DNA from: Planctomycetota bacterium
GTDB taxonomy: Bacteria; Planctomycetota; UBA1135; UBA2386
DNA length: 64,000 bases
Assembly: GCA_002684655.1 (NCBI GenBank)
Contig: NYVR01000091.1
Location: 1,452 to 65,451, forward strand
Direction: 5' to 3'
Positions 20,050-59,646 of this stretch are shown here, piece after piece. The translations under genes and the position numbers were made by a program. The notes under the pieces were generated by a model. The model was not told the origin of the DNA. It saw only the letters and a list, made by a program, of their open reading frames with translations, and ran no database searches. Numbering within the stretch: position 1 is the stretch's first letter; the number at the start of each line of letters is the position of its first letter.

Positions 20050-20763
20050 CTAGGAGCCGCCGCGGCCGAACTTTGGCCCGCCGCCAGCGCCGTTGCTGGG
20101 TTTGCCCTTCGACTTGCTCTTACTAATACGAGGCCGACCGGCCTTGTTACCGCTGTTGCAACCTGCTCATTCGCTGGGCAACGGCAAGCCTTGCAGATCC
20201 TCCATCTCCATACGCGCGAGGCGGACAGCTGCCTCAAGGTCCTCGCGGTGCAGCGTCTTCTCGGCTTCGTTAGGAGCCTGCTCGGCGAGCCATCGCCAGT
20301 TCTGCCTCGCAGCCTCGATTTCAGGCTCCCAGACTTTTCGGTCGAGGCCCTCGAGGCGCATCAGCCAGGTCTTGAGGAACTGCGCGCGCGCCAGCGCCTG
20401 CCGGGCTTCGCGCAACAAGGTGTCATCAGCGTCCGGCGCAGCCTGCATCGCCTCCACCAGGCTGGCGAGCTCGTCGCGGGCCTCGATGAGCCCTTGCGAC
20501 TGCATGCGGGCCTTGTTGAGCTCGATCACGAGCCGGTGACCGACACGCTCGTCGTATGCATCCGGGTCTGCCGGCAGCGCCTCGAGCGCCGCCTGATACT
20601 CGCGGATCGCGAGCTCCCAGTCGCCTGCTTCCGCCGCCTCGTAGGCCGTCGCCGCGACCGCGCCCGCGGCCTCGAGGGCAACCTGATCCTGGCCCGGGCC
20701 TTCGTGATAGGCCCACGCTCCGACTGGGAGCACGAGCCAACCGATCAGCAGGATGTTTCGCAT
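20050..20763 (-). CDS. Membrane-anchored helical/TPR-like protein of the MoxR-VWA operon; candidate selenoprotein (UGA at 20167-20169, E-U-A-G-C)
   Basis: The ORF track stops at 20167 (198 aa). Reading through TGA gives PSE-U-AGCNSGNKAGRPRISKSKSKGKPSNGAGGGPKFGRGGS and TAG at 20050-20052. The 198-aa part is secure; the extension is inferred. Confidence 0.65.
20131..20144 (-). promoter_or_regulatory. Candidate SECIS-like hairpin
   Basis: AGGCC-GGUC-GGCCU hairpin starting 22 nt after the UGA at 20167-20169; only 5 bp. Confidence 0.35.
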
Positions 20764-20950
20764 GATGTGATGCTTGCTGGCCGACTGTCGACCGCAGCAG
20801 ACAGCTTATCGGCGACGACGGCTGCCAGGGGCCAGGACGCCAGAAAACTTCGCTGGGCCGGGCCGATCGCGCACTTAAAGCCCTTTTTTCGATCAGATAA
20901 AGACACCGGCAGCACCTGCGCCGACGCGCGCGCAGGGCGAGCCCGAGCGG

Positions 20951-21940
20951 CTATCCATCAGCCCGCGGAGCGACCGCGCCAGGTCGCCAAGTCGTCCCGA
21001 AGTAATGGAGCAAGATCGGCAGCAAGGTCAGCACCAAGGAGGCGACCAGCACGGAGAACAAGGCGTATTCCCGCATGCTCAGCTGCTCCAACAGTGGCTT
21101 GCGAGAGTCCCGCGCCGCTGCGCTGAGGATGTCGCTGGGGACCTGTCGCCGGTTGCCGTTGTGAAACTCTCCGCCGGCGCGGATAGCGAGCTGCCGCAGC
21201 GTGCTCTCATCTTGGCGAGACTGCTGACCACCGATGAAGCTCCCGGAGAGGTGGTCGCCGACGCCGATCACCAGCGTACCGCCGATGGACGGGGGCAGCG
21301 TGGGCATACCTGTCGAAGGTACTGTGTCTCCGTCGCTGACGATCACCATGAGCGCGCTGTTGACGCGCCATCGACGCGCGATGTCGCAGGCGACCTGGAT
21401 GCCGTCGAACAGCTTGGTCTTGCCGACCTTGAACGCATACTGGAGATCGACCTCCGTGAGCATGTGCCTCACGACCTCGATGTCCTTCGTATCAGTCACG
21501 ACCGGCTTGGCGCCGTTGTAGGTCGCGATGACGGACACCTTGTATTGACCGATCTTGACCCGCTCGAACATGGAGTCGATCAATTCACGGGCGCGCTCGT
21601 GCCGGCTCTGATCGCCGCTCGCACCCGCGTCCTCCAGCAGCATGCTGGGCGATACGTCATAGATGAGCAGTAGGTGACGCCAATCTTCGTCCGGAATCTC
21701 CTCGCCTGCGTGGACCTTCGGCTCGACAAACATCAGCGCCGTCAGCCCCCACGCCAGCGCGCTGCTAGCCAAGATCCGGGCGAGCGGCGCGCCCTTTGCC
21801 CACGCTGCCGGTGTCCCTGTTGGCCCAAAGACCAAGTGTCGAAGCCTGTGCACGCGACGCGCGTGCGACACCTCGCCGACCAGCGTGAGCGCGAAGACCG
21901 CGAGCGCGACGTAAAGGGCTACCAAGGCGTGTGCCTCCAC
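20951..21940 (-). CDS. VWA domain membrane protein (BatB-like)
   Basis: N-terminal TM segments, MIDAS-like DVSPS, IVSDGD, C-terminal TM. Start is GTG 21940 or TTG 21925, overlapping the upstream stop. Confidence 0.85.
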   Translation of the reverse strand: MEAHALVALYVALAVFALTLVGEVSHARRVHRLRHLVFGPTGTPAAWAKGAPLARILASSALAWGLTALMFVEPKVHAGEEIPDEDWRHLLLIYDVSPSMLLEDAGASGDQSRHERARELIDSMFERVKIGQYKVSVIATYNGAKPVVTDTKDIEVVRHMLTEVDLQYAFKVGKTKLFDGIQVACDIARRWRVNSALMVIVSDGDTVPSTGMPTLPPSIGGTLVIGVGDHLSGSFIGGQQSRQDESTLRQLAIRAGGEFHNGNRRQVPSDILSAAARDSRKPLLEQLSMREYALFSVLVASLVLTLLPILLHYFGTTWRPGAVAPRADG

Positions 21941-22839
21941 CCCAACAAAAACAGTCCCAGCAGGCCGAGCGCGCTCAGTCCAGCGATAGAGAACGGGAAG
22001 AACCAATCAACCAGCTCAGACGTCCCCTGCTCCATCTCCGCCTTGGTCATCTCGTCAATCTGGGTAAAGACGCTGCTCAACGCGTCCGAGTCTCCGGGGT
22101 TAAAGACCTCACCACCGGTTGTCCGTGCCAGATTCACGATCGGGCCAGGCGCCTCAGACTCCTGGATGTTGACGGCGAACAGCTTGATCGCGTCCTTACG
22201 AAGACGCTTCGCGATCACCATCTCTGCGCCGTTCGAGAGGTCGCTGCTGAACCCGTCCGTGATCAGGATCATCATCCGGTCGCCGTCGCTGCGCGAGGTC
22301 AGCACCTCGCGGGCGCCGAGCACTGCCTTGCCGATCTCGGTGCCGCCGAATCCTGGCGGCGCGTTTTCTGGCCGCATGAAGGGGATCGAGTTACGGAACG
22401 CAGACGGATCGCTGGTCAACGGCACCCAGTGAAGATAGTTGTTGCCGAAAAACGTCAGACCAAACGAATCACCGTCGCGGAAGTCGAGGAACTCGTTGAT
22501 CGCAGCCATTGAGGCGTCGTAGCGGGATCCTCCGCCGAACGACGCGGTCATCGAGCCAGAGATGTCGACGAGGAATTGGATGTTGGTCAAGGCCCGCTTT
22601 TGCCGCGGGGCGGCCAGCTCCTGTGGTAGCGCTAGGAGCATGACGGCCACTGCGAGCAACAGCCCGGGTAAGGACTCGCCGAACGCCAGCAGCGCGCGCA
22701 TCAGCCCGCCGCTGCCGAGGCGGCGGCGCCCGTCCGAATCGAACGGCATCGCGACGCGTCCGCCGCGACGCGTCCACACCCAATAGACATGCAGGACAGG
22801 CAGCGCCAACAGCAACAGCAACCACGGACGCCCGAACAT
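21919..22839 (-). CDS. VWA domain membrane protein (BatA-like)
   Basis: MFGRPWLLLLL BatA-type N-terminus, MIDAS DISGS, GGTEIG, LITDG, C-terminal TM. Confidence 0.88.
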   Translation of the reverse strand: MFGRPWLLLLLALPVLHVYWVWTRRGGRVAMPFDSDGRRRLGSGGLMRALLAFGESLPGLLLAVAVMLLALPQELAAPRQKRALTNIQFLVDISGSMTASFGGGSRYDASMAAINEFLDFRDGDSFGLTFFGNNYLHWVPLTSDPSAFRNSIPFMRPENAPPGFGGTEIGKAVLGAREVLTSRSDGDRMMILITDGFSSDLSNGAEMVIAKRLRKDAIKLFAVNIQESEAPGPIVNLARTTGGEVFNPGDSDALSSVFTQIDEMTKAEMEQGTSELVDWFFPFSIAGLSALGLLGLFLLGWRHTPW

Positions 22840-23651
22840 CAGCGCGCCTCCGGCTGCAGTTGGTCCGCCGTAACAGATCGATACGGCGCCAGCAGCTCGC
22901 CGACGTCGACGCCGTCCGGCGGGTTCGGCGCGTGCAGCCACTCCTCGACGTGGCGCAACAGCGCGCCAGCTCGGTCGTCTGCTCGAATCGCCATAACGGC
23001 GTCGGCGACCTTCATGTCGCCAAGATCCAACCGCGCTCGCCAGAACGCGACCAGCAAGCGCTCCAGCTCAGCCTTCTCGCGCTCCTCCGCGTCGCCTCGA
23101 CCCACTCGCTCGACCAGCGGCCGCAGACGATCTGCGAGCGTTGGTTCGGCTGCGGCGACGACAGCCGCAGGTTTCCGCGGGCGCCCGAGAAACAGGATCG
23201 CGAAGAGCCCGATCGCCCACAAGGCGACGACGCTGACCTGCAGCTGCGAATAGCCGCCGAGCGATTCGCCAGGGTTCGCCGCCAGCGCGCTCGGCTCGAA
23301 CATGTTTTCCGGCAGGACACTCACGACCTCGACATTGAGCGCAGGGAGATCGTCGGTCGTCGACCCGTCCTCCCTCGCGAGATAATCCGTCAGGTCGTAG
23401 GTGCCGGCCTCGAAGCCGACCCACTCAAGGTCGTATCGCAGGTGCTCACCGTGGGGCCACGCCTTTACGACCCTGACCATCACCGGCGACTTGGACGTGC
23501 TCGCCACGGGCGCCAACGCGGTACCGGCGAGCACGACCTGATCGACGTAGGCGCGCATACCCACCGTCGCCTCGCGCACGTCGCGCTGCTGAGCAGCAGC
23601 CCAGCCGACGCACAAGAGCGCAGCAGACAGCAGCTTCGCGGCTCGGTTCAT
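22839..23651 (-). CDS. Exported single-pass membrane protein of the MoxR operon (BatD-like/hypothetical)
   Basis: Signal peptide, beta domain, TM (VVALWAIGLFAILFL), helical tail; overlaps both neighbours. Confidence 0.75.
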   Translation of the reverse strand: MNRAAKLLSAALLCVGWAAAQQRDVREATVGMRAYVDQVVLAGTALAPVASTSKSPVMVRVVKAWPHGEHLRYDLEWVGFEAGTYDLTDYLAREDGSTTDDLPALNVEVVSVLPENMFEPSALAANPGESLGGYSQLQVSVVALWAIGLFAILFLGRPRKPAAVVAAAEPTLADRLRPLVERVGRGDAEEREKAELERLLVAFWRARLDLGDMKVADAVMAIRADDRAGALLRHVEEWLHAPNPPDGVDVGELLAPYRSVTADQLQPEAR

Positions 23652-24565
23652 CTGCCACCCCCTGACACTCCGCGCGACCGGAAGAAGTGCCGCAGCTTAT
23701 GCAGGTATGGCTCGTCAGTGCGAAGGACGAGGTGATCGACGCCGCCCCTGCGCAGCGCTGACGCAATGCGCTGCTGGTCGACCATCTGGCTGCGCGCCCG
23801 CGCCGTGAACACGCGGCCGGTCTCTGCCTCGCGCGCGCGGACGAACCCGCCTGCCGGCAGGCACACCTCTGCGGGGTCCTGCACCTGGATCACGGCGACC
23901 TCGTGCTCCTGCGCTAACAGCGCCGCGGCGTGCGCGACGCCCGCCTCGTGGAGGTCGCTCACCAGCACGATGATTGAGCGGCTCTGCAGCGTCGGACGGA
24001 GCTCGCGAATTCTTCGCGTCACCATCGTCTCTTCGTCGAAGGCGTGTCGACGCAAACGGAGGAGCCACTGCATAACCTGGTCTTTGGCGAGGCTCGGTTG
24101 GATACGCACGTCTCGTCGCCCGCAGCCGAGCACGCCGACCGGGCTAGTACGGTCCAGGCAAGCGAGCGCTAGTCCGCCCGCCACTTGCAGCGCGACCTCA
24201 TACTTGCTGCGCTCGGTCGAGGACACGACCATCGAGGCAGACGTGTCGAGCAAGAACCACGCGGGAATCCGGCGCTGGGCCTCGTATTCTTTGATGTGGT
24301 GTTTGTTGGTGCGCGCCGTCACGCGCCAGTCCATCGCCTTGACCGGATCTCCTGGCAGGTATTGGCGTGACTGCACGTAGTCGATACCCGACCCGAGGAA
24401 GCGCGACCCGTCGAGGCCATAGCTTAAGTCATTCGCTAAACGCCGGATCGCGATGACAAACTTACGCGCTGCCGACGGCTGCACCTCCGGCAGCATCCCA
24501 GGCAGCTCGGCTTCTCGCTCACGGACGCTGCGTCGCGCTCGATCTGTCGATTGCGGACCGCTCAT
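23648..24565 (-). CDS. DUF58 domain protein
   Basis: GSGIDYVQSRQYLPGDPVKAMDWRVTAR, LLDTSASM, VSD; directly follows moxR. Confidence 0.92.
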   Translation of the reverse strand: MSGPQSTDRARRSVREREAELPGMLPEVQPSAARKFVIAIRRLANDLSYGLDGSRFLGSGIDYVQSRQYLPGDPVKAMDWRVTARTNKHHIKEYEAQRRIPAWFLLDTSASMVVSSTERSKYEVALQVAGGLALACLDRTSPVGVLGCGRRDVRIQPSLAKDQVMQWLLRLRRHAFDEETMVTRRIRELRPTLQSRSIIVLVSDLHEAGVAHAAALLAQEHEVAVIQVQDPAEVCLPAGGFVRAREAETGRVFTARARSQMVDQQRIASALRRGGVDHLVLRTDEPYLHKLRHFFRSRGVSGGGR

Positions 24566-34938: not shown

Positions 34939-34940
34939 GC

Positions 34941-42774: not shown

Positions 42775-43662
42775 TCAGCGGCGGCGGCGCGGCGCCGCGT
42801 AGGCCTCAAGGTCGGCAGCGACCTTCTGGATCTCTTCCTCGGTGACCTTCTCGCCCTTGGTCCGGCGGAGCATCTCAACGAACCACGCGCACTCCCAGTC
42901 GCTGACCGGACCGCCGACGTTCTTACCGTCGTTCTTGTCGCCGGTTTGCGCGTTGGAGCTGAGCAGCTCTACCCCGTCTGGACCGACGATCACGACCCAA
43001 GGGAGTCCGCCGCTCCGCTCGCCCTTGTAGCGCGCGTTGATCGCTTTTCCGGAGGTGTCCCGATCAACGTCGATCATCAGATCGACCCAACCCTTGCCGT
43101 AGATAGGCGCGGTGACCTGTCGCCCGAGGAACTCCTCGAGCACCTTGCACCAGCCTCACCAAGGGGCGTCGAAGCGGATCAGGATGTTACGGCCGGTCTT
43201 CTTCGCCGTAACCATGGCCGCTGCGAGCTTCGCCGCCGCATCAACAGGCGCGCAAAAGTGCGGCTCGACGGCGGCGAGCAGCTCTGCGCCGCTGAGCTTG
43301 CCGTCGACGAGATATGACGACGCCGCGATGGTCTTCAAGCGCGCACCGCCTGCGTCCTCGACCAGCAGCGCTGGACGCTTAACGGACGGATAGAGTTTGG
43401 CGTCGCCGCTGTAGACCTCGAACTCGTAACGGAACTTGCGAGAGACCGTTCGGTCCCTGCGCAGAAGACCGGCGAGGTCGACCTCAGCTCCCGGCAGCAC
43501 GACCAGGACCCGCTTGTTGTGCACAGCTGCGCGCGCGCGGGCCTTGCGCAGGTCCGCGGGGACGACGGCCTCAACGCCGGCCGCTTCTGTCGCTTGCGCG
43601 GTGGCGAGTCCGCCGAGCGCTAGCGTGATCGCGAGTTTTCGCGCGGTGAGCGTGACATCCAT
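42775..43662 (-). CDS. Exported thioredoxin-fold selenoprotein (UGA at 43156-43158; W-U-G-W-C)
   Basis: ORFs 43156..43662 and 42775..43143 are in the same frame and joined by TGG-TGA-GGC-TGG-TGC, giving RFDAPW-U-GWCKVL at the canonical Trx active site; GLPW cis-Pro loop downstream; signal peptide. Confidence 0.88.
43122..43141 (-). promoter_or_regulatory. Candidate bacterial SECIS element
   Basis: GCUCGAGG-AGUU-CCUCGGGC, an 8-bp stem with a G-containing loop, starting 14 nt after the UGA. Confidence 0.6.
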
Positions 43663-46256: not shown

Positions 46257-46475
46257 ATGTAGGGTCTGCGGAATCAGAAGGAGGGGGTCGCACAACGTAG
46301 CAGCGAGCAAGCTCGCGCCAAGCCCAAGACATCATACGACGGGGGCGGCTCCGCCTGGTCTTCGCCGGATGGCTCCGGCGACGCCGGCGTTTCCGCCCGC
46401 GGACGACGCCCGTGGATTCGGATGGATTCGGCGACGCACTGTTCTCCCGAAGGCGGCGTATCGTAAAAGAGGCGT

Positions 46476-48400: not shown

Positions 48401-48429
48401 CGACACCGTCGCCACCGAGAGACTCAACC

Positions 48430-49353: not shown

Positions 49354-49366
49354 ACGAGGGCGCCGG

Positions 49367-49936
49367 CTACGTCGCCCGCTCGCCGAACAGCAGCTCTCCA
49401 GCCCACGGCTGCACGCCCTCAAGGCGCAGCAGCGCGCGTTTGTTCTCTAAGCCGCTGGCGAACCCCGTGAGTTGGCCGCCGCTCCCCACGACGCGGTGAC
49501 ACGGCACGATGACGGTTAGCGGGTTGCGCCTGTTCGCGGCGCCGACCGCGCGCGCAGCGGTCGGGCGCCCCATCGCTGCCGCCTGTCGCGCGTAGCTGCT
49601 CGTCTGGCCGTAGGGGATCTCGCGAAGCGCCCACCACGCGCTCACTTGGAACACCGTCCCGACCGGATCGAGCGGCAGGTCAAACGACCGCAGCTCACGA
49701 CCGAAGTAGGCCTGCAGCTGCGCGGCGCACGCTTGGATCACCTCTTGATCGGGGTCCTCGACGACATCGCCGGTGACGCCGTTGCCGGCGGCGTCGCTGC
49801 CGGCGAAGAGCAGGGCTCGCAGGCCCCGCTCGCTCGCGTAAGCGTGCAACGAGCCTAGCGGCGTCGAGATCTCCCCGTGAGCGAAGGAGCCTGTCGACGG
49901 GCGACGCCGCTTGAAGCTGCCTGCGGGCCGCGTCAC
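49367..49936 (-). CDS. ogt: Methylated-DNA--protein-cysteine methyltransferase
   Basis: GTVFQ..W..LREIPYGQT.SY, ARAVGAAN..NP, PCHRV active site. Confidence 0.92.
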   Translation of the reverse strand: MTRPAGSFKRRRPSTGSFAHGEISTPLGSLHAYASERGLRALLFAGSDAAGNGVTGDVVEDPDQEVIQACAAQLQAYFGRELRSFDLPLDPVGTVFQVSAWWALREIPYGQTSSYARQAAAMGRPTAARAVGAANRRNPLTVIVPCHRVVGSGGQLTGFASGLENKRALLRLEGVQPWAGELLFGERAT

Positions 49937-52167
49937 CGGACGGTCTTCGCTGCCAAGTAGGGCAGCGGGATGTCGTGAGCGTCTACGCCGCGACGCACGG
50001 CGTCGCGCTGGACCATGTAGGGGTCGGCCAGGAAGCCGCGGGCGATCGCGCAGAGATCAGCGCGGCCTGCCGCGACGATCGTGTGGGCGTGATCGAGGCC
50101 CTGGATCGCGCCGACCGCCATCACCGGCACGTCCGCCTCGAAGCGGATTCGCTCGGCGAAGGGCACCTGATACATGCGCCCGTACTGCGGTCGCGACTCC
50201 GGCACGTTGCCAGCTGAAGAAACGTCGATGACGTCCACGCCTGCGTCTTTAAGCCAACGGGACAGCTGCACCGCCTCGTCCACCGTGATGCCGCGGTCTT
50301 CGCTGTCGAACCAGTCCGTCGCCGACAAGCGCACAAACAGCGGCATGCTGTCGGGGATCGCGGCCCGCACCGCCCGGGCCACCTCCATGGGGAAGCGAGC
50401 ACGGTTCTCGAGCGAACCGCCGAAGTCGTCGTCGCGGACGTTGCTCAGCGGCGACAGGAAGCTCGACAGGAGGTAGCCGTGCGCCATGTGCACCTCGACG
50501 AGATCAAATCCCGCGCGCACACACCGCTCTGCGCTGGCCACGAACGCGTCCAGGACTCGGCGCATATCCTGGGCGTCCATCGCGCGCGGCGTCGGCCAGT
50601 CGGGACCGAACGGCAGCGCAGACGGACCTATCGTGGGCCACGCGTCGTCACCCGTCAGGGGCGCGTCACCCTCCCACGGCCGGCTGCAGGACGCCTTTCG
50701 GCCGGCGTGAGCGATCTGCATCCCGATCTTTGATGAGGAGTGCGTATGGACGAAGTCGACGACGCGCTTCCACGCCGCCTCTTGCTCGTCGGTCCACATC
50801 CCCGCGCACCCGGGCGTGATCAAGCCGTCCGCGGTGACGTTGGTCATTTCGGTCATGACCAAGCCCGCCCCACCGGTAGCTCGACTCCCGAGGTGCACGA
50901 AGTGCCAGTCGCCGACGACGCCATCCGTGGCGGAGTACATGCACATCGGAGAGACGACGACGCGGTTGGGGATCGTCGTCCCACGGACGGGGAACGGCAG
51001 GAACGCGGGCGGCAGCCCCGCCTCGGCGCCTGCCTCTCGCGCGACGAGGGCGTCGACGGCGCCGACGAGGTCGGGGTCACGCGTCTCCAGGTTGTCGTGC
51101 GTGATGCGCTTGCTGCGCGTCATCAGGTTGAAGACGAAGCGCTCGGGCACCTGCTGCAGATAGCGGCCGCTGTTCTCGAACCACTCCAAGCTAGTCTGCG
51201 CGGCGCGCTGCACCTTGAGGACGTCGACGAAACGCGCCTCCTCATAGACCTCCAACGCCCGCGCCGTGTCGCCGACGTTCTCCGCGACGGCGTCGGCCAA
51301 GGCGATCGCGTCCTCCATCGCGAGCTTGGTGCCGGATCCAATGCTGAAGTGCGCCGTGTGCGCTGCGTCGCCTAACAACACGACGTTCTCGTGCCGCCAA
51401 GACTCGCAACGAACGGTCGGGAAGGTGCGCCAAATGGAGCGATTGGTGAGCAGCTGCTCGCCTTCCAGGTGATCGGCGAACAGCTCGTGGCAAAACCGCG
51501 CGGAGGCCTCTTCATCGAGCTTATCGAGCCCGGCACGTTTCCAGGTCTCTTCACGGCACTCGACGATCCAGGTGCCGAGGCCGTCCTCGAAGGGATATGC
51601 GTGGACCTGAAACAAGCCCCACTCGGTCTCCCTGAAGACGAACGTGAACGCCGTCATCTTCTTGGTGGTCCCAAACCAAGCGAACTTGCATTTGCGCCAA
51701 TCGAGGTCGGGGCGGAACGTGTCGGCGAAGCGCTGCCGCACTTGTGAGTTGACGCCGTCGGCGGCGACGACGAGGTCCGAGTCAGCGACCAGCTGGTCGA
51801 AGTCCTCGACCGTGTGCTCGAAGTGCAAGCCAACGCCGAGCTCGCGGCACCGATCCTGCAGCAGCAACAGCAGCTTCTTCCGCGCCAAGCCACAGAAGCC
51901 GTGGCCCGTGCTGGTGACCTTCTCGCCGGCGTAGAAGGTGTCGATGTCCGTCCAATACGCGAACTCGTCGCGGATTCGGCGGAAGCTCTCCGGGTCTGCT
52001 TCCTCGAAGTTGCCCAGCGTCTCGTCCGAGAAGACTACGCCCCAGCCGAACGTGTCGTCTGAGCGGTTCTGCTCGTAGATGTCGATCTGCGCGCTCGGCA
52101 GCCGCTTGGACAGCAGGATCGCGAAGTAGAGCGACGCCGGGCCACCACCGATGCAGGAGATCTTCAT
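49933..52167 (-). CDS. Bifunctional FAD monooxygenase / NADH:flavin oxidoreductase (salicylyl-CoA 5-hydroxylase / anthraniloyl-CoA monooxygenase type)
   Basis: IGGGPASL, TFGWGVVFSD, GDAAHTAHFSIGSGTKLAMED, then an OYE domain NRVVVSPMCMY, HMAHGYLLSSFLSP. Confidence 0.92.
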   Translation of the reverse strand: MKISCIGGGPASLYFAILLSKRLPSAQIDIYEQNRSDDTFGWGVVFSDETLGNFEEADPESFRRIRDEFAYWTDIDTFYAGEKVTSTGHGFCGLARKKLLLLLQDRCRELGVGLHFEHTVEDFDQLVADSDLVVAADGVNSQVRQRFADTFRPDLDWRKCKFAWFGTTKKMTAFTFVFRETEWGLFQVHAYPFEDGLGTWIVECREETWKRAGLDKLDEEASARFCHELFADHLEGEQLLTNRSIWRTFPTVRCESWRHENVVLLGDAAHTAHFSIGSGTKLAMEDAIALADAVAENVGDTARALEVYEEARFVDVLKVQRAAQTSLEWFENSGRYLQQVPERFVFNLMTRSKRITHDNLETRDPDLVGAVDALVAREAGAEAGLPPAFLPFPVRGTTIPNRVVVSPMCMYSATDGVVGDWHFVHLGSRATGGAGLVMTEMTNVTADGLITPGCAGMWTDEQEAAWKRVVDFVHTHSSSKIGMQIAHAGRKASCSRPWEGDAPLTGDDAWPTIGPSALPFGPDWPTPRAMDAQDMRRVLDAFVASAERCVRAGFDLVEVHMAHGYLLSSFLSPLSNVRDDDFGGSLENRARFPMEVARAVRAAIPDSMPLFVRLSATDWFDSEDRGITVDEAVQLSRWLKDAGVDVIDVSSAGNVPESRPQYGRMYQVPFAERIRFEADVPVMAVGAIQGLDHAHTIVAAGRADLCAIARGFLADPYMVQRDAVRRGVDAHDIPLPYLAAKTVR

Positions 52168-52249
52168 GCGGGGGCTACTCTAGACCGTGGAGCACCGACC
52201 GGCCAACCGAACGCCCCCGGAACGGCCTCCGCGCCTCCAGGTCGGGGTA

Positions 52250-52266
52250 TCGCAAGTCATTTGCGA
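52250..52266. promoter_or_regulatory. Inverted repeat, candidate transcription-factor operator in a divergent intergenic region
   Basis: TCGCAA-gtcat-TTGCGA perfect 6-5-6 palindrome. Confidence 0.35.
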
Positions 52267-52513
52267 AAAGGGTCCTGCAACCGATTGGCGTCGACATCGC
52301 CGCGCCCGGGAGGCGAATCAGAACGCCGTAAACGCCCCCATCGGTCGATTTTGGCGCGCTCGGACGAAAGTCCGAATCGACCGACCGATTATCCGTGATT
52401 CGTGCAGACCGAATACGTCGTTCTCGTTGCAGCTTGCAAAGGTAGATTGCACGTCCGACAGCAGGAAGGTAGCCGGTAATATGTCCGGTGAGGTCATAGT
52501 CCCCGACCAGCCG

Positions 52514-52522
52514 CCCCCCCCC
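52514..52522 (+). repeat. C9 homopolymer at the 5' end of the sugar transferase
   Basis: Nine consecutive C between ATG 52481 and the main reading frame. Confidence 0.8.
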
Positions 52523-52535
52523 AACCGAAACACGC

Positions 52536-53921
52536 TTGGCCGAAAAAACAGCATCGACCAGACAGCTCTTCTCGGCAGTAGCCGAGCATTCGAGCATTCT
52601 CGCCGCGCTCAGCGTGGCGGGTGTTTGGTCGCACGGGACAGAGTCGCCGACGAGCGACTGGCTGACCGCCTCGCTGGCTTCGGTCGCCTTGTTTCACGTC
52701 GGCTGGCTCCTCGTCGCGCGCCGCCTCGGAGCACATGCGGTCTCGCCGTCGAGAGACCTGGCCTACTCGGTGGCGCGCACGATGGAGTCATGGGCGACGA
52801 CATGGGGACTCGCGGGGCTGCTCGCCGTGACGACGATCGCGCCTGACGGCTTCCAAGTCTGGCTCGCGCTGCTCGCCGGAGCCGCCATGTTGTGCGCGCT
52901 GCGGTTCGCGACCTCCTTTAGTCAGGTAGGCCGCCTCGCTGGGCGCGCTCGTGCGATCGTCATTGGGAGCTGCCCGAGCGCGCGCGCGCTCACCTCCACT
53001 TCAGACGCTGAAGGGGCCTTCCACTTGTGCGGCTTCGTCCCCTTCGCGAGCGAAGACCCCAAGCAGATGCCTCACCTTAAGCAGCTCGGCGCGCTGCAAG
53101 ACTTGTCCAGCCTGATCCGCGCCCACAAGGTAGACGTCGCCCTCGTCAGTCCCTCGGACGACGCTGTCACCCGGGAGGTCCACCAAGTGATGGACACGTG
53201 TGAGGCGCTCGGCATCCAAACGCAGTATTTCCCTTCCTTCCTCGACGTCGCAGACATGCGTGTCGGCATCACGTGGAGCGCGAGTCGGCCCGGCCTCAAC
53301 GTCCAAAAGGTCGGCAAAACGTCTTTTGAAGCGGCCTGCAAACGGTTCATCGACGTCGTCGGCGCCGCCGCAGGCATCGTCGTGCTGACGCCCGTGCTGC
53401 TAGCTTGCGCCCTCATCGTCAAGCTCAACAGCCGCGGGCCGATCCTCTACAGCCAGACGCGGGTCGGCAGGCTCGGGCGAACGTTCCGCTGCCTGAAGTT
53501 CCGCACGATGCACGTCGGCGCCCAAGAGATGCAGGAGCTGCTGCGCTCCGAGAGCATCCAGGACGGCCCGGCTTTCAAGCTGGACAGCGACCCGCGCGTC
53601 ACGCGGGTCGGCAAGGTCCTGCGCAAGTTCAGCCTCGATGAACTGCCGCAGCTATTCAACGTGCTCAAGGGCGACATGAGCTTGGTCGGCCCCCGCCCGC
53701 CGATGCCGAGCGAGGTCGAAAAATACGCCTGGTGGCAGCGCCGGCGCATCTCGATCAAGCCCGGTCTGACCTGCATCTGGCAGGTCTACGGACGCAACCG
53801 CGTTTCGTTCAAGCGCTGGGTCGAGATGGACCTCTTCTACATCGACAACTGGTCGCTGTGGTTGGACATCAAGCTGATCTTGAAGACCGTTCGGGTCGTC
53901 TTCAGCGGCACCGGCATGTAG
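52536..53921 (+). CDS. Priming polyprenyl glycosylphosphotransferase (WcaJ/WbaP-type sugar transferase)
   Basis: N-terminal TMs, Rossmann-like AIVIGS, KRFIDV, KFRTM, DPRVTRVG..LRKFSLDELPQLFNVLKGDMSLVGPRP, KPGLT. The true start may be ATG 52481 across the C9 frameshift. Confidence 0.92.
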   Translation: MAEKTASTRQLFSAVAEHSSILAALSVAGVWSHGTESPTSDWLTASLASVALFHVGWLLVARRLGAHAVSPSRDLAYSVARTMESWATTWGLAGLLAVTTIAPDGFQVWLALLAGAAMLCALRFATSFSQVGRLAGRARAIVIGSCPSARALTSTSDAEGAFHLCGFVPFASEDPKQMPHLKQLGALQDLSSLIRAHKVDVALVSPSDDAVTREVHQVMDTCEALGIQTQYFPSFLDVADMRVGITWSASRPGLNVQKVGKTSFEAACKRFIDVVGAAAGIVVLTPVLLACALIVKLNSRGPILYSQTRVGRLGRTFRCLKFRTMHVGAQEMQELLRSESIQDGPAFKLDSDPRVTRVGKVLRKFSLDELPQLFNVLKGDMSLVGPRPPMPSEVEKYAWWQRRRISIKPGLTCIWQVYGRNRVSFKRWVEMDLFYIDNWSLWLDIKLILKTVRVVFSGTGM

Positions 53922-53927
53922 TCACGG

Positions 53928-53948
53928 CGCGCGCGGTCACCGCGCGCG
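53928..53948. terminator. GC-rich inverted repeat at the junction of convergent genes
   Basis: CGCGCGCGGT-C-ACCGCGCGCG palindrome spanning the pepP stop; no U-tract. Confidence 0.3.
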
Positions 53949-55274
53949 ACGCATCAACGCCTCGATGTCACGCACCGCCTTCGGCGCGGCCGCGGTTAAC
54001 ACGACAGGCCCTGACTTCGTGATCAACACGTCGTCCTCAATCCGCACGCCGATCCCCCGGAGTTCGCGCGCGACGTCGCGGTCGTCCCGCGCGAAGTAAA
54101 GCCCCGGCTCGACCGTCAGCACAGCGCCGACTGGCATCGTCACCGGGCGGCCCTGCGCGTCTTCGTAGCCGCCGACGTCGTGCACGTCTCGCCCGATCCA
54201 GTGGCTCGTCCCGTGCATGTAGAACGGGCGATAAGCGTCGGCTTTGACGAGCGACGCGGGATCGCCACGCAGCACGCCTAGGTCGACGAGGCCCTTTGTC
54301 AGCGCGCGCACGCATGCGCGGTGCGGGCGGTCCCACGCGGCGCCGGGCTTGCACGCGCGGATCCCGGCCGCGAGCGCCCGCAAGACGACCTGATAGACGG
54401 CTTTTTGGGGGTCAGAGAACACGCCGTTGACCGGGAAGGTCCGCGTAACGTCGCCGGTGAGCCCCTCGATCTCAGCGCCCGCATCGATCAGGAGCAGGTC
54501 ACCGCTGCGCATCCGACGATCGTTCTCGTGGTAGTGCAACACGCACGCGTTCGCGCCGCTCGCGACGATCGACGGATAGCCGTTACGCGGGCTGCCGGCG
54601 TCGCGAAACACCTTCTCTAACGCCGCCTGGGTCTCGTACTCATACATCCCCGGTCGCGTCACGGTCATCGCAGCGACGTGACCGGCGCAGGTGATCGCGG
54701 CGGCGCGCCGCATCGCGTCTTGCTCTGCCGCGTCCTTAACCAGGCGCTGCGCAGCGAGGGCGGGGCGGGGATCCCGCAGCGTCGGATGCGCCGGCAGACG
54801 TCGCTTACGGCGGCGCTGCGCGACGGCCCCGAAGACCTCGAACAGGCGGCGATCAAAGTCAGCGTCGCGGCCGAACGTGTGCCACAGCGACCCATCGTTC
54901 GAGATCATCTCCGGCAGGTCTGACCACAGCTCATCGATCGGGCGGGCCTCGTCAACGCCGAAGCGCTGCTGCGCCCCGCGAGTGCCGAAGCGCCGCCCGT
55001 CCCAAATCTCGCGGGTCTTATCGCGCGGGCGAACGAACAGCACGGCCCGATGTCGGCGACGGTCAAGCCGCCACGCCACCAGCACGACCGAGGGCTCAGG
55101 GAAGCCCGTCAGGTAAAGCACGTCGGAGTCCGGACGGTAGTCGTTGAGGACGTCGCCGTTGCGGAGCGTCTCCGGCGCGCCGGGCAGGATGAGGACGCCG
55201 TCCCCGAGGGTGTTCAGCAGGCGCTGTCGGCGCGCGCGATGCAGAGAAGGATCCAGAGAAGCGTCTCGACTCAC
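53937..55274 (-). CDS. pepP: Xaa-Pro aminopeptidase
   Basis: YRPDSD..YLTGF.EP, LHYHEN, LIDAG, DVTRT, HGTSHWIG.DVHD, TVEPG, RIEDD. Confidence 0.94.
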   Translation of the reverse strand: MSRDASLDPSLHRARRQRLLNTLGDGVLILPGAPETLRNGDVLNDYRPDSDVLYLTGFPEPSVVLVAWRLDRRRHRAVLFVRPRDKTREIWDGRRFGTRGAQQRFGVDEARPIDELWSDLPEMISNDGSLWHTFGRDADFDRRLFEVFGAVAQRRRKRRLPAHPTLRDPRPALAAQRLVKDAAEQDAMRRAAAITCAGHVAAMTVTRPGMYEYETQAALEKVFRDAGSPRNGYPSIVASGANACVLHYHENDRRMRSGDLLLIDAGAEIEGLTGDVTRTFPVNGVFSDPQKAVYQVVLRALAAGIRACKPGAAWDRPHRACVRALTKGLVDLGVLRGDPASLVKADAYRPFYMHGTSHWIGRDVHDVGGYEDAQGRPVTMPVGAVLTVEPGLYFARDDRDVARELRGIGVRIEDDVLITKSGPVVLTAAAPKAVRDIEALMRRAR

Positions 55275-55385
55275 GGCGGCCGAGTTTCCCCGCTCGCCGC
55301 GCGCCGGCGCAAGGGCGCCGTGACCGGATCCGCCGCTAGGCGGAGCCGGTGACCGCGGGCAAGACGGCCGAGACCGCCCGCGCCG

Positions 55386-55847
55386 CTAGAAGAACGGCAC
55401 CTCGACGAACACGTCTGGTTGGTCCCAGCTCAAGGGCACCTCCACGAACATCGGCGAGAAGCCGACCGCGTCGATCTCAAGCACGACCAGGACCTCGTCC
55501 TCGTAGAACTCAGGGCCGATGACGGCGGCGCCGGTGCTGTCCTCGAAGAAGCCGACCTCCGCGTCGGCGAGCAAGTATTCGTCGATCAGCACGCGCCCCG
55601 AGCTGTCCGTTAGGAACCAGTCGAAGTAAGGGCTGACGCAGGTGCAGCCCGACCACTCCTGGTCCGCCTCCACGACGCGCACGGAGACGTTCTCCCACGC
55701 GAGGTTCGTGACCGGGTCGTAGACCTCGACGAGGACCGAGGTGAGGCGGGGTTGTTCGACCACCACCACCGTCGCGCGCCGGGACCTGCCGCCGCAGGCG
55801 GACAAGAGCAGGGTTACTGAGAGGAGTATCCAGGTTGGCAAGCGCAT
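55386..55847 (-). CDS. Hypothetical acidic beta-rich lipoprotein
   Basis: SD GGAG upstream; lipobox LSAC; transthyretin/prealbumin-like TDSSG motif. Confidence 0.75.
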   Translation of the reverse strand: MRLPTWILLSVTLLLSACGGRSRRATVVVVEQPRLTSVLVEVYDPVTNLAWENVSVRVVEADQEWSGCTCVSPYFDWFLTDSSGRVLIDEYLLADAEVGFFEDSTGAAVIGPEFYEDEVLVVLEIDAVGFSPMFVEVPLSWDQPDVFVEVPFF

Positions 55848-55879
55848 TGTTTTGTCTCCGGGGGAAGCGGGGTTCCTAG

Positions 55880-55895
55880 AGCAAGGATCGTGCCG
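55880..55895 (-). promoter_or_regulatory. Sigma54 (-24/-12) promoter
   Basis: Minus strand reads CGGCACG-ATCC-TTGCT versus consensus TGGCACG-N4-TTGC(A/T), ending 32 nt upstream of the lipoprotein ATG. Confidence 0.7.
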
Positions 55896-56067
55896 CCGGG
55901 AGGCCTCCGTGGCCCCGCTGTCACGGGGAGCCGCGGCGCCGCTACGCGACAGGTGTCGCGTCAGCAGGACACCGAGAGCATCCTCCCGGCGACACGCGAT
56001 CCTTCAGCGCAAGACAACGCCTGGCGTGGCGTGTTTCACCTCGATTCGGAGCCGCCGACGCCGCGCG

Positions 56068-57399
56068 TCACCGCTGCCGGCGCAGCTCGTCGTGCTCGCT
56101 CATCCGCTCGGCGATCCGCTGTTCAAAGCCTCGGCCACCTGGCACGTAGAAGCGCGCGTCCTTCAGCGCCGCTGGTAAGCACTCCATCGCGGCGACGCCC
56201 GCCTCGGTGTCGTGCGCGTAGACGTAGCCCTTGCCGTGCCCGAGATCCTGCGAGAGCCCGCTGACCGCGTTCCGGAGGTGCGGCGGCACGGGGTGCTGCG
56301 ACCCTTCGCGCACTTCCCGCTGCGCCGCCGCGATGGCGCGGTAGACCGCGTTGCTCTTAGGCGCCGCCGCGAGATACACGACCGCCTCGGTCAACGGCAA
56401 GCGGCCTTCAGGCAGGCCGAGGAACTGAACGGCGCTGACCGCCGCCATCGCGACCTGCAGCGCCATCGGGTCCGCCAGCCCGACGTCTTCGGAAGCGACC
56501 GCGACGACGCGTCGCGCCGCGTGCATCGGGTCCGCGCCGGCCTCGAGCGCGCGCGCCAGCCAATAGACGGCAGCCTGCACGTCCGAGTTTCGCAGGCTCT
56601 TGTGCAGCGCCGAGAGCAAGTCGTAGTGCAGGTCGCCCGACTTGTCGTGCTGCAGCGCCCGGTGCTGGAACGCCTCGACGACCATCTCTTCCGAGATCTC
56701 ATCACCGTCGAGGCAGGTCGCGGCGCAGGCCTCAAGGCACACCAGCGATCGACGCGCGTCCCCTCCGGAGAGCGCCGCCAGCCGCTCGACCGCGGCATCG
56801 GCGATGGTCAGACGGCGCACGCCCAGGCCGCGCTCCTGATCCGCCAGCGCCTTGCGCACGAGCCCCGCGATACGAGCCGCATCCAAAGGCTGCAGCGGGA
56901 CGACGCGGCACCGCGAGAGCAGCGCGCCGTTGATCGAGAACGACGGGTTCTCCGTGGTCGCGCCGACGAGGACGATGTCGCCGCGCTCGACGTGCGGTAA
57001 GAACGCGTCCTGCTGCGCCTTGTTGAAACGGTGGATCTCGTCGACAAACAGCAGCGTGCCGCGTCCGTCGCGCTGACGTCGCTGCTTGGCTTCCGCGACC
57101 GCCTCGCGGACCTGCGCGACCCCGGACAACACCGCAGAGAACGGCTGAAAGTGCAGGTCGGCGTGCTTCGCGATCAGCAGGCCCAGCGTGGTCTTGCCGA
57201 CGCCCGGCGGGCCGAACAGCAGGAGCGACCCGGCGACGCCCTGCTCGATCGCCGCACGCAGCGCCCGCCCCTCGCCTAGCAGCTCATCCTGGCCGAGATA
57301 TTCGTCGAGGTCGGCCGGCCGCATCCGCTCGGCCAGCGGCGCGAGCGGCGCGCGCTTCGCGTCGCGGCCGTCTTCACTGATGTCGCCGAACAGCGTCAC
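56068..57399 (-). CDS. rarA: Replication-associated recombination protein A
   Basis: PLAERMRP, GPPGVGKTT, FVDEIHRFNKAQQD, GATTENPSF, SALHKSLRNSD, ASEDVGLADP. Confidence 0.95.
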   Translation of the reverse strand: MTLFGDISEDGRDAKRAPLAPLAERMRPADLDEYLGQDELLGEGRALRAAIEQGVAGSLLLFGPPGVGKTTLGLLIAKHADLHFQPFSAVLSGVAQVREAVAEAKQRRQRDGRGTLLFVDEIHRFNKAQQDAFLPHVERGDIVLVGATTENPSFSINGALLSRCRVVPLQPLDAARIAGLVRKALADQERGLGVRRLTIADAAVERLAALSGGDARRSLVCLEACAATCLDGDEISEEMVVEAFQHRALQHDKSGDLHYDLLSALHKSLRNSDVQAAVYWLARALEAGADPMHAARRVVAVASEDVGLADPMALQVAMAAVSAVQFLGLPEGRLPLTEAVVYLAAAPKSNAVYRAIAAAQREVREGSQHPVPPHLRNAVSGLSQDLGHGKGYVYAHDTEAGVAAMECLPAALKDARFYVPGGRGFEQRIAERMSEHDELRRQR

Positions 57400-58193
57400 G
57401 CGTCAGTCCGCTGTCGCTGCGCCTCAAACAACAGGACGCCTGCCGCCACGGCGACGTTCAGGCTCTCGACCGGAGGATGGAGCGGGATCCGCACGTGGGC
57501 GTCCGCCGCGTCGAGCCACTCGGAGTCGACGCCGCCAGCCTCGGCGCCGAGGACCAGCATCGAAGGCCGCCGCAGATCTGCCTGCGTGTGGGAGCACGGG
57601 CCCCTTCCGTCGGCGACCACGAGCTGCAGCCGCTGACGGCGCGCGAACGCGATCGCATCGGCCGCGGTCATGCCGTGCGTGACCGGCAGCCGGAACACGG
57701 AGCCCATCGAGCCTCGAACGGCCTTCTCGCGGAACGGGTCCGCGCCGCCGCGCAGCGTCAAGCAACCCGTCGCGCCAGCAGCCTCGGCGGTGCGCACCAC
57801 CGCGCCGACGTTGCCGGGGTCGCGGAGACCGGCCGCCGCGACGACCAGCGGCGCGAGCTCTTCACCGAGCAGCGCGCGCTCGTCGTACGAAGGGCGACGA
57901 ATCAGCGCCGCCACGCCTTGCGGCGTGTCGAGCGCGCTCATGCGCGCGAGCACCGCGTCCGAGACGTCGAGGAACGAGCCCGCGCGCTCCGCCAAGGCGT
58001 CGCGCAGGTCGACGTCGTTCAGCTTCGGCGAGACGGCCGCCTCGACGACCTCTCCGCCCGCCCGGACAGCGTCCCAGACGAGCCGCACCCCCTCGGCGAG
58101 CATCAGGCCCGCGGCCTTGCCGGCGGCCGCTTCGCGGAAGCGCTGCACGGCTGGGTTCTTGGCCGACGTCAAGGACTTGGACTTGTGCGCCAT
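57396..58193 (-). CDS. TrmH/SpoU-family RNA methyltransferase
   Basis: ATG 58193; RDPGNVGAVVRTAEAAG, RGSMGS, LGAEAGG, ESLNVAVAAG. Confidence 0.92.
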   Translation of the reverse strand: MAHKSKSLTSAKNPAVQRFREAAAGKAAGLMLAEGVRLVWDAVRAGGEVVEAAVSPKLNDVDLRDALAERAGSFLDVSDAVLARMSALDTPQGVAALIRRPSYDERALLGEELAPLVVAAAGLRDPGNVGAVVRTAEAAGATGCLTLRGGADPFREKAVRGSMGSVFRLPVTHGMTAADAIAFARRQRLQLVVADGRGPCSHTQADLRRPSMLVLGAEAGGVDSEWLDAADAHVRIPLHPPVESLNVAVAAGVLLFEAQRQRTDA

Positions 58194-58619
58194 CGCCCCA
58201 TGATGGCCGCGCGCCGCGACGGGTTCTATCAGCGAATCACCGCGGAGCGCCGCGGCCTGCGCGCAACGGCAGCGCGCGCCCAGCACACCAGCGAACCCGG
58301 GGCAGACGCATCCGAGCGCGAGCAGCGCGCCGGCGTCGCCTCATCACGTGTCACGCTCCGCGCGCCGTCTGCCGAGGGCCAGCGAGTTGGTTGAGGTCAT
58401 GGCAGCGGCACGCGGGATCCCCCGCTCGGACCGTAACGGAATCGCCACGTAAGGCATCGAGGCGTGGGCCATCTCGCTCGGCGAGGTATCCTGGGCCACA
58501 CTCGGAGCGGTCGGCGGCTCCCCCTGCAGCTTCGATCGCCACCGCGTCGCGAACCCCACGATGAGCCTGATCTCTCGACAGACCCAGCACGACGCCCGCC
58601 TGCTTACAGGAGGCCTTCT

Positions 58620-59222
58620 TTGAAGTTTTGCAGCGCATGCGGCGGCCGCTTGGAAGACAAGGTGCCGCCAGGCGACGATCGGGTGCGGCGGTGGTGCCCG
58701 GCCTGTGAGGTCGCGCACTACAAAAACCCGCTGGTCGTCGTCGGCTGCTTGGTCGAGCGCGGTGACGAGCTGCTGCTTTGTCGACGAGCGATCGAACCGG
58801 CGTACGGAAAGTGGACCGTACCGGCTGGCTTCCTGGAGCTCGGCGAGACCTTGGCCGACGGCGCCGCGCGCGAGACCCGCGAAGAGGCGGGCGCGCACGT
58901 GGAGGTCCTAGCGCCGCACAGTCACCTCGACCTGACGCACATCGGCCAGCACTACGCCATGTTCCGCGCGCGCCTGACGGCGCCAGACATCAAGGCCGGC
59001 GTCGAGAGCCTCGAGTGCGCGTGGGTGCGCCGCGACGACATACCGTGGGACGAGCTGGCGTTCCCTGCGGTCCACTTCGCGCTGCGGCTCTTGTTTGACG
59101 ACCAGGACGCCGGGGTGGCGCACGTGCACCACGGCCAGATTCGATGGAGCGGCGCTGGATCGCGCTTCTCGGCGACCAACTATGAGCTCGCAGACCACCT
59201 CCGAACGCCGGTGCGGCCATGA
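58620..59222 (+). CDS. Zinc-ribbon NUDIX hydrolase
   Basis: AGGAGG SD then TTG 58620; FCSACG..CPAC zinc ribbon; GFLELGETLADGAARETREEAG Nudix box. Confidence 0.9.
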   Translation: MKFCSACGGRLEDKVPPGDDRVRRWCPACEVAHYKNPLVVVGCLVERGDELLLCRRAIEPAYGKWTVPAGFLELGETLADGAARETREEAGAHVEVLAPHSHLDLTHIGQHYAMFRARLTAPDIKAGVESLECAWVRRDDIPWDELAFPAVHFALRLLFDDQDAGVAHVHHGQIRWSGAGSRFSATNYELADHLRTPVRP

Positions 59223-59316
59223 CATCGCCACCCCCTAGACGAAGGGGGAGTCGCCCCCCTATCCTCAGAGCACGCAGCCACGACCGGCTGCTGCCCCTTA
59301 CAAGGATCCCATCTTT

Positions 59317-59646
59317 ATGAAGCTCCCCGCAATGCTCGGAGTCCTCGCGCTCGCGTTCGCGCTGGTCGCCTGTGGCTCACCCGCGAGCGAAGGCGCCAAC
59401 GCGGCGCCCTCCTCTGCCGACGCGAACGCCACGTCCAGCGCCCACCTCGTCCTCGAGAGCGCGCCCGATTGAAACGGCTGCGTCGCCACCGTGCGTGGCG
59501 CCATCCGCAAGCTCCCGGGCATCGGCGAGATCGACGTCAAGGCTGGCAAGGCTGAGATCCGGGTCACCTACAACCCCGACGTGACCGACGTCGACAAGCT
59601 GCTCGCCGGCATGGAAGCAGCGGGGCAGCCTGCCAAGCGGCAGTAG
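59317..59646 (+). CDS. HMA (MerP/CopZ-like) domain lipoprotein, candidate selenoprotein (UGA at 59470-59472; D-U-N-G-C)
   Basis: Absent from the ORF track. ATG 59317: MKLPAMLGVLALAFALVAC (lipobox), linker, HLVLESAPD-U-NGCVATVRGAIRKLPGIGEIDV…IRVTYNPDVTDVDKLLAGMEAAG, TAG at 59644-59646. Confidence 0.85.
59475..59507 (+). promoter_or_regulatory. Candidate bacterial SECIS element
   Basis: Upper stem CGCCAC-CGUGC-GUGGCG starts 11 nt after the UGA; lower stem CGGCUG/CAUCCG has one mismatch. Confidence 0.6.

Follow-up and report, generated by a model that had tools for sequence, protein, structure and literature searches.

We analysed a 64-kb stretch of DNA (the window; contig C91:1452-65451) from the genome of an uncultured marine planctomycete and found in it three genes, c1, c2 and c3, that each carry an in-frame TGA codon ahead of a cysteine (Cys) codon. 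The source genome (G000) is a metagenome bin of 3.69 Mb on 176 contigs, 85.65% complete with 1.16% contamination and about 66% G+C. In all three genes the reading frame continues past the TGA, the TGA is kept among relatives with Cys in some homologues, and a hairpin of the bacterial selenocysteine insertion sequence (SECIS) type follows; the genome also holds selA, selB, selD and a selenocysteine tRNA (tRNA-Sec). We consider it very probable that the three UGAs are read as selenocysteine (Sec, U) by the ordinary bacterial route and that the products are exported. Reading frames, TGA conservation, Cys/Sec pairs, hairpins and insertion machinery were computed; selenium insertion, export and chemistry we infer from them.

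Architecture of the three genes

The initial annotation of the window had described three UxxC genes of unrelated folds, each beginning with a signal peptide, lipobox or anchor. All three lie where it placed them (Table), and inspection of the N-termini bears out the export signals. c2 matches Pfam Thioredoxin_7 (PF13899) over residues 144–228, which span U169, with 34.4 bits (cut-off 27). c3 matches Pfam HMA (PF00403) over residues 51–103, from U52 onward, with 39.8 bits (cut-off 24.8), and its U-N-G-C falls on profile positions 8–11. Pfam gave c1 TPR and MIT matches that are all sub-threshold, and its AlphaFold model (pLDDT 78.6) is all-helical and TPR-like, with helices in residues 23–190 and a disordered tail (residues 195–237) that holds the UxxC. 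The best PDB matches of this model are TPR domains, with YbgF at E 2.4e-3 (TM-scores of 0.43 and 0.76, normalised to query and target length respectively); the fold search gave generic TPR matches only, none at E ≤ 0.001.

Table. Selenoprotein genes, their elements and neighbouring genes. Plain positions are those of the window; positions after a contig name (C30 and so on) are those of other contigs of the source genome.
Feature	Position	Strand	Remarks
c1, TPR-like selenoprotein	20050..20763	-	237 aa, read through TGA; stop TAG 20050-20052
c1 Sec codon UGA (U199)	20167..20169	-	LPLPSE-U-AGC
c1 signal peptide or signal anchor	20710..20763	-	MRNILLIGWLVLPVGAWA, then YH (invariant YHEGPGQ); by eye and crude hydrophobicity rule
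c1 SECIS hairpin	20131..20144	-	stem AGGCC/GGCCU, loop GGUC at +31..+34
c2, Thioredoxin_7 selenoprotein, W-U-G-W-C	42775..43662	-	295 aa; final stop TGA 42775-42777
c2 Sec codon UGA (U169)	43156..43158	-	FDAPW-U-GWC
c2 signal peptide	43591..43662	-	MDVTLTARKLAITLALGGLATAQA; by inspection, orthologue N-termini comparable
c2 SECIS hairpin	43122..43141	-	8-bp stem GCUCGAGG/CCUCGGGC, loop AGUU at +26..+29
c3, HMA-domain lipoprotein, metal-binding loop D-U-N-G-C	59317..59646	+	109 aa; stop TAG 59644-59646
c3 Sec codon UGA (U52)	59470..59472	+	SAPD-U-NGC
c3 lipoprotein signal peptide	59317..59373	+	MKLPAMLGVLALAFALVAC, lipobox L-V-A-C; by inspection
c3 SECIS hairpin	59484..59500	+	stem CGCCAC/GUGGCG, loop CGUGC at +21..+25
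MoxR AAA_3 ATPase, upstream in c1 operon	24562-25563	-	Pfam
DUF58 protein, upstream in c1 operon	23648-24565	-	Pfam
270-aa protein of unknown family, c1 operon	22839-23651	-	
Two vWA proteins, upstream in c1 operon	21919-22941 and 20951-22006	-	Pfam
FG-GAP protein	C30:3171		TGA in 15/15 matches
418-aa 'GCTUGNG' family	C86:5018		TGA in 40/40 matches
681-aa coiled-coil 'GGGUTGC' protein	C22:61722		two TGAs in close relatives, none in distant ones
'SGUUG' protein, 360 aa, exported	C170:2646-3725 (TGA 3554)	-	adjacent Sec codons, KSG-UU-GVK; L189; two TGAs in 4/4 relatives
SlyD-like FKBP isomerase ending DSG-U-CREC	C155:2515-3048 (TGA 2529)	-	L195, L197-L199
Full-length DsbD (DsbD_N, DsbD_TM, C-terminal thioredoxin with U-N-S-C)	C1:16794-19109	+	L093; domain spans U
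Rhodanese lipoprotein			domain spans U
AhpC-type peroxiredoxin			domain spans U
BCP			domain spans U
TlpA-like redoxins a, b and c			domain spans U
Deiodinase-like protein			domain spans U
Trx7/PDZ protein			NF041199, 327.9 bits, over cut-off; domain spans U
MsrA			domain spans U
Two-Sec HMA-like protein			domain spans U
OsmC			domain spans U
ArsC-related protein			NF041106, 125.4 bits, over cut-off; domain spans U
Rdx/SelW-like protein			domain spans U
SelD			domain spans U
TlpA-d	C153:28828		paralogy only
DG-like zinc-ribbon protein			NF049953, 51 bits, below cut-off

c2 has a second, N-terminal thioredoxin-like domain, whose CxxC is lost in this genus and reads WCVWC or WCGWC in distant homologues. 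None of the NCBIfam selenoprotein models matches the protein, and the best scores it reaches in NCBIfam are far under the cut-offs. c3 also stays under the NCBIfam cut-offs (NF041115, 25 against 95; MerP TIGR02052, 29.7 against 92.55; CopZ, 32.2 against 91; NF045683, 12.9 against 375). Judged from its sequence, c3 would work like the NF041115, MerP and CopZ proteins, yet it is no member of those equivalogs. In almost every sequence of the c3 alignment, the signal peptide has a Cys close to its end. Two of the products would leave the cytoplasm via signal peptides (that of c1 may be a peptide or an anchor) and the third as a lipoprotein.

Conservation of the in-frame TGA codons

Relatives were searched in six frames in 60 genomes of the same genus, family and order. 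For c1, 31 of 33 genomic matches contain the TGA and two contain none, with alignments over residues 1–237; two TGAs occur in 11 of the matches. U is aligned in all 25 loci of the c1 alignment, within the motif DLQGLPLPSE-U-xG-C/U, and the tail past U is conserved in every one of them. The source genome has U-A-G-C at this site, whereas nine close relatives have U-x-G-U. The genome collection holds 389 c1 loci confirmed by tblastn, and in the best 80 of these the first position is Sec in 73 and Cys in seven; the tails of the same 80 take the forms UxxC, UxxU and U-x5-U, the Cys forms being CxxC in Cys-rich tails (CxxCCxC).

The other two genes behave similarly. For c2 there is one TGA in each of the 19 best matches outside the source genome, down to 40% identity, and weaker homologues have none; U stands in 19 of 20 aligned loci, and the twentieth (L038) is a Cys homologue whose WCGWC aligns with W-U-G-W-C. 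c3 has 49 matches outside the source genome (one TGA in 43, other stops in one, none in five), some relatives carrying up to four c3-type paralogues per genome, and its alignment shows U in 24 of 25 loci and Cys in L086. In c1, c2 and c3, Sec would in this way take the place of the leading Cys in a CxxC motif of redox or metal-binding type.

We also observed that in five further genomes of the same genus (G001, G008, G009, G010 and G013) c2-type and HMA-type selenoprotein genes share a contig and lie 1–45 kb from each other, the distance in the window being 16 kb; this looks like conserved synteny and not chance.

The window DNA recurs across marine metagenomes from several studies, and independent metagenome contigs span c2 and c3. 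Among the differences listed, none falls at either TGA; a further 209 differences between window and metagenomes lie outside the listing examined for these two sites. The listed metagenome matches to the window include no RNA dataset. A single RNA-library contig (X23, record 10) maps to 42784–42961, which is c2 downstream of the UGA, and may stem from DNA carry-over.

SECIS hairpins and the selenocysteine machinery

The hairpin stems begin 22 (c1), 14 (c2) and 11 (c3) nt past the UGA, exactly the distances first proposed for them, and are 5, 8 and 6 bp long, which places the loops 27, 22 and 17 nt from the UGA. As given in the available portions of a 2026 review (PMC13188914), the bacterial SECIS consensus comprises a loop of 3–9 nt with G in its first two positions, a stem of 4–16 bp, 16–37 nt from UGA to loop and a minimum free energy ≤ -7.5 kcal/mol, with stated exceptions. 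All three hairpins agree with these published values in every respect (PMC13188914), and their loops share an [N]G[G/U] start. SelB, with GTP and Sec-tRNA(Sec), would bind such a hairpin within the coding sequence, 17–27 nt past the UGA.

Comparison of orthologues argues that the hairpins are kept as structures. The c1 loop GGUC is invariant in 24 orthologues, six of seven stem pairs change on both sides, none of 500 shuffles reaches the covariation score, and the hairpin shifts along where two codons are deleted. In c3, both partners have changed in four of six pairs across 23 homologues (91.3% of cells paired; again 0/500 shuffles reach the covariation score), and the loop CGUGC is nearly constant in the 23 sequences. 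The 20-nt hairpin of c2 is near-invariant in 19 orthologues whose proteins are 40–74% identical, the synonymous sites of L-E-E-F-L all included; pairing holds in 98.7% of cells, and one pair has changed in a compensatory way from C-G to U-A. The whole c2 stretch also has a folding energy (z -3.42) matched by none of 200 shuffles. An Rfam scan of the window gave zero matches at gathering thresholds, the Rfam content for bacterial SECIS being unchecked.

As the initial annotation had said, the window itself contains no sel genes; we found them elsewhere in the genome, on contigs C141, C88 and C84. SelB scores 351.6 bits, over cut-off, and covers model positions 1–578 of 581 with its GTP_EFTU, beta-barrel and SelB-wing_3 domains. 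SelA (450.8 bits) and SelD (354 bits) are likewise over their curated cut-offs, and selD has one in-frame TGA of its own. The tRNA-Sec is 99 nt long (Rfam, 72.8 bits, over cut-off) and is called SeC(tca) by aragorn. Among 301 sampled Planctomycetota genomes at least 85% complete, 221 have a SelB over the curated cut-off, so that Sec use appears to be the norm among Planctomycetota; Sec use is put at about a quarter of sequenced bacteria in the available text of PMC9312934.

Selenoproteins across the genome

We scored both flanks of every in-frame TGA in the genome with a codon log-odds model trained on 691 long open frames. A first coding-potential scan demanded stop-free flanks of 40 and 30 codons around the TGA and missed Sec sites near termini (selD, c1, Rdx, ArsC) as well as adjacent UGAs. 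Short-flank, double-TGA and hairpin-anchored scans were added, the last of these poorly specific by itself (144/1293 hits), and candidates were checked by Pfam, NCBIfam or relatives. The result is about 25 selenoprotein genes with 27 Sec codons, roughly one gene per 150 kb; since the scan was homology-light and the bin is incomplete, the figure of 25 should be taken as an estimate rather than a full count. The genome-wide scan agrees with the earlier suggestion that the organism is selenoprotein-rich, whereas the suggestion that the local density is typical fails, the window, with three genes in 40 kb, standing about 11-fold above the genome average.

Beyond c1–c3, 15 genes have a Pfam or NCBIfam domain that runs across U and five have a TGA kept in relatives (Table). 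The 'SGUUG' protein has relatives about 50% identical and no Pfam or NCBIfam match. In the SlyD-like isomerase, paralogues have a His-rich tail in place of DSG-U-CREC; its hairpin (8 bp, GGUC loop) lies past the true stop, and the TGA and a covarying stem recur in two orthologues. Given the full-length DsbD, the protein that supplies electrons to the periplasmic selenoproteins may itself contain Sec. Most of the 92 scan candidates were rejected as adjacent genes that happen to share a frame, such as groES-groEL. L108 was also rejected, being a HAD hydrolase whose domain ends ahead of the TGA. L107 (C150:5136, 'GSCUSRG') is a candidate outside the count of 25 and gave no family match.

Of the 24 genes whose 5' end is intact, 16 were judged by inspection to begin with a signal peptide, lipobox or anchor: c1, c2, c3, FG-GAP, rhodanese, DsbD, deiodinase-like, TlpA-b, -c and -d, Trx7/PDZ, the 'GCTUG' family, the coiled-coil family, MsrA, the two-Sec HMA protein and the 'UU' ('SGUUG') protein. 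Eight look cytoplasmic (AhpC, BCP, OsmC, ArsC-related, Rdx, SelD, SlyD-like and DG-like), and the 5' end of TlpA-a is cut by a contig end. About two thirds of the selenoproteins would thus act outside the cytoplasm.

Alternative readings

Several observations weigh against reading the UGAs as Sec in this way. The whole-stretch folding energies of c1 and c3 are no better than those of shuffles (z -0.25 and +0.63). In this genome of 66% G+C, a hairpin of the consensus type also follows 152 of 1343 (11%) ordinary TGA ends, and nine of 26 Sec contexts fail the strict contiguous-stem test. TlpA-d and the DG-like zinc-ribbon protein, two of the 25, stand on paralogy or a sub-threshold match only, and because the genome is an incomplete metagenome bin, the selenoprotein count is approximate, as is the attribution of every contig to a single organism. 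A crude uniform export predictor flagged 12 of 22 selenoproteins against a background of 43% (p 0.19); a looser rule flagged 17 of 22 against 52% (p 0.012) and mis-flagged two cytoplasmic proteins, OsmC and Rdx. Since the home-made rule has a background of 43–52% and mis-flags these two, we make no claim of enrichment in the envelope, which is not established. 'Mostly exported' is a fair description of the set, so that the earlier proposal of Sec use mainly in the envelope stands as a count by inspection and not as an excess over background.

The bare motif TGA-N6-TGC is not enriched (34 matches against 28.7 expected; 16 of 100 shuffles reach 34). Because the motif is unenriched and consensus hairpins follow 11% of ordinary TGA stops, neither motif nor hairpin alone proves anything; the evidence that goes beyond chance is reading frame, homology and conservation.

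The initial annotation had also raised the possibility that these are real selenoproteins served by a relaxed or non-canonical SECIS recognition, which we consider unlikely. The first loop base ranges from +21 to +35 across the Sec sites of the genome, the nine strict-test failures belong here as well, the SlyD-like gene has its SECIS after the true stop, and in the U-x-G-U relatives of c1 a spacing of 9 nt between the UGAs puts a single loop 27 nt from one and 18 nt from the other, so that one hairpin could serve both. All of these nevertheless fall within the 16–37 nt range and stated exceptions given in the available text of PMC13188914, the loops GGUC, AGUU and CGUGC share the canonical [N]G[G/U], and the near full-length SelB has the usual winged-helix SECIS-binding domain. 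A strict, uniformly applied consensus hairpin is found in 17 of 26 Sec contexts as against the 11% of ordinary TGA ends (Fisher p 2e-10). This test is rule-based, the elements sharing too little sequence for a covariance model of the +1..+60 regions.

That the UGAs are true stops, the genes being split, decaying or misassembled and the downstream frames untranslated, is in our view very improbable. Public gene calls do end at the TGA: there are 1514 c1 relatives in public databases at E ≤ 1e-10, and of the 120 listed, nearly all have a length of 198 aa and end at residue 198 (84% query cover), under the names 'hypothetical' or 'TPR repeat protein'. The c1 tail is moreover of low complexity and predicted to be disordered. 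Against this, the TGA and the frame downstream of it are kept over dozens of genomes, to 40–50% identity, domains span the TGA, and the c1 and c3 hairpins covary. The few full-length public c1 relatives (P0051, P0089 and P0100) are Cys forms, with Cys in place of the TGA as in the other full-length homologues, and the independent assemblies of c2 and c3 show no change at the TGA among the differences listed.

Least probable of all is a recoding of UGA to Cys or Trp, or read-through by a suppressor or near-cognate tRNA: Cys is the residue in non-TGA homologues, sequence by itself does not tell the inserted residue, and about 14% of the genome is missing and could hold an unassembled tRNA, but both tRNA-Cys genes carry the anticodon GCA (aragorn), the UCA tRNA-Cys proposed as a check is absent from the source genome, whose sole UCA tRNA is the 99-nt tRNA-Sec beside selA, selB and selD, and TGA ends 28 of 43 predicted window genes, which as the commonest ordinary stop speaks against any global reassignment and would make any recoding local and hairpin-dependent.

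The c1 family and its operon

c1 is the last gene of a MoxR-DUF58-unknown-vWA-vWA operon whose upstream genes together occupy 20951..25563 on the minus strand. This order is kept: among 40 loci with full flanks, both vWA genes lie upstream on the same strand in 37, and MoxR in 33. c1 founds a Planctomycetota-wide family that databases cut at the TGA. Bat (Bacteroides aerotolerance), or MoxR-vWA, operons include a TPR component, BatC. c1 resembles BatC as a membrane-targeted TPR-like protein, its membrane segment N-terminal, encoded last in such an operon downstream of MoxR (AAA_3), DUF58 and two vWA genes, a likeness of operon place and fold; it differs in its flexible tail with UxxC, UxxU or U-x5-U. 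We suggest for c1 the role of a TPR scaffold in the periplasm; its flexible tail could form a selenenylsulfide or diselenide and serve the vWA/MoxR machinery as a redox or metal-binding arm. The biochemical function of MoxR-vWA (Bat-like) operons is described as still unknown in the available text of PMC3557215, and neither the literature searched nor the 119-family table in the available part of PMC13188914 contains a Sec-containing Bat component.

In one c1 subfamily a second Sec codon follows six codons after the first (U-S-G-N-G-T-U; L063, L155–L162, L167, L168, L171 and L172). In L063 two hairpins follow one another, and the second UGA lies inside the loop of the first. In two loci of the same genus (L110 and L112), about 800–1000 nt separate the second vWA gene from c1, against 188 nt in the window (20763–20951); there may be an extra gene between them.

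Two very large open frames flank the Bat-like operon, at 13732–19953 (+, 2073 aa) and 25615–29700 (-, 1361 aa). At window position 52514, just upstream of a gene at 52536–53921, all three independent metagenome DNA runs have one or two bases fewer, which may reflect a small assembly error or a strain difference. On a contig of the source genome (contig positions 13967–14055), aragorn finds a single tRNA-like gene, with the four-base anticodon ctgt, to which it assigns no amino acid.

Relation to known selenoproteins

The tail of c1 recalls a different class of enzyme. Mammalian thioredoxin reductase has a C-terminal GCUG redox arm, and both c1 and the SlyD-like 'GUCREC' protein resemble it in having Sec near Cys in a flexible C-terminal tail. 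There is no homology to thioredoxin reductase, however, and c1 is without a flavin or other redox domain, so that its tail would need a partner for recycling.

c2 is like the UxxC selenoproteins of the Thioredoxin_7/DsbH group in its domain, in Sec at the first CxxC position, in export and in being mis-called as two genes, and differs from known Thioredoxin_7 selenoproteins in matching no NCBIfam model and in its extra N-terminal thioredoxin-like domain. c3 shares with HMA-fold UxxU selenoproteins the Sec at the first Cys of a metal-binding loop; it differs as a small stand-alone lipoprotein with UxxC and up to four paralogues in relatives.

As a whole, the set resembles those of selenoprotein-rich bacteria, being large and dominated by thioredoxin-fold and redox families. 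Reported counts are 39 selenoprotein genes in Syntrophobacter fumaroxidans (PMC9312934) and, in the available text of PMC13188914, at least 57 in the Olavius algarvensis Delta 1 symbiont and 63 in a Methylomirabilota metagenome-assembled genome. The source genome, with about 25, has fewer, belongs to the Planctomycetota and is weighted to exported proteins; formate dehydrogenase and glycine reductase are not among the genes that the genome scan found. In the portions available, selenoprotein-rich bacteria are placed among anaerobic Thermodesulfobacteriota, Clostridia and Synergistota (PMC9312934, PMC13188914), and the string 'planctomyc' does not occur in the 2026 review (PMC13188914). Exported selenoproteins as such are on record, the lipoproteins SaoB, SaoX and SaoC being described in the available part of 10.1101/2022.07.06.499078.

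Many of the families found here are catalogued: Table 1 of the review, as available, lists Prx, MsrA, OsmC-like, rhodanese, SelW-like, deiodinase-like, ArsC-like, Trx7/PDZ, DG and TlpA/redoxin families (PMC13188914). Absent both from that table, as available (PMC13188914), and from our NCBIfam and Pfam matches are the Bat-operon TPR, FG-GAP, 'GCTUG', 'GGGUTGC' and 'SGUUG' families, the SlyD-type GUCxxC, the stand-alone UxxC HMA lipoprotein and DsbD proper. The literature searched contained nothing on Planctomycetota selenoproteomes or Sec in Bat operons, although supplementary tables of large surveys may list some of these families.

Implications for planctomycete biology

The mechanism at the three loci is ordinary bacterial Sec insertion, and what is new is one clearly interesting family, that of c1, together with several uncatalogued ones. 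If the products act where their N-termini suggest, the cell would run a periplasmic reducing and metal-handling network in which a selenolate takes the place of a thiolate as the attacking nucleophile. A wider version, tentative and in our judgement doubtful, extends this to a phylum-wide selenium redox and metal network in the planctomycete envelope, with a Sec-containing DsbD feeding TlpA-like, Thioredoxin_7, MsrA, rhodanese and HMA proteins, the c1 tail tied to the Bat system, and several families new. New selenoprotein families under such a network would be the Bat-operon TPR, the FG-GAP protein, the 418-aa 'GCTUG' and 681-aa 'GGGUTGC' proteins, 'SGUUG' and the SlyD-like GUCxxC.

About 25 selenoprotein genes, mostly exported, in a marine planctomycete, together with SelB in 221 of 301 genomes of the phylum, take selenium use beyond the known anaerobes, and a large reservoir of it may be going unnoticed in the Planctomycetota. 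Because gene callers cut at the UGA, the active-site halves of envelope redox proteins are systematically missing from the annotation of this phylum. The c1 family offers a testable link between selenium and the MoxR-vWA (Bat-like) operons, and if the wider envelope network is real, the c1 tail would be the first concrete biochemical handle on the widespread Bat operons.

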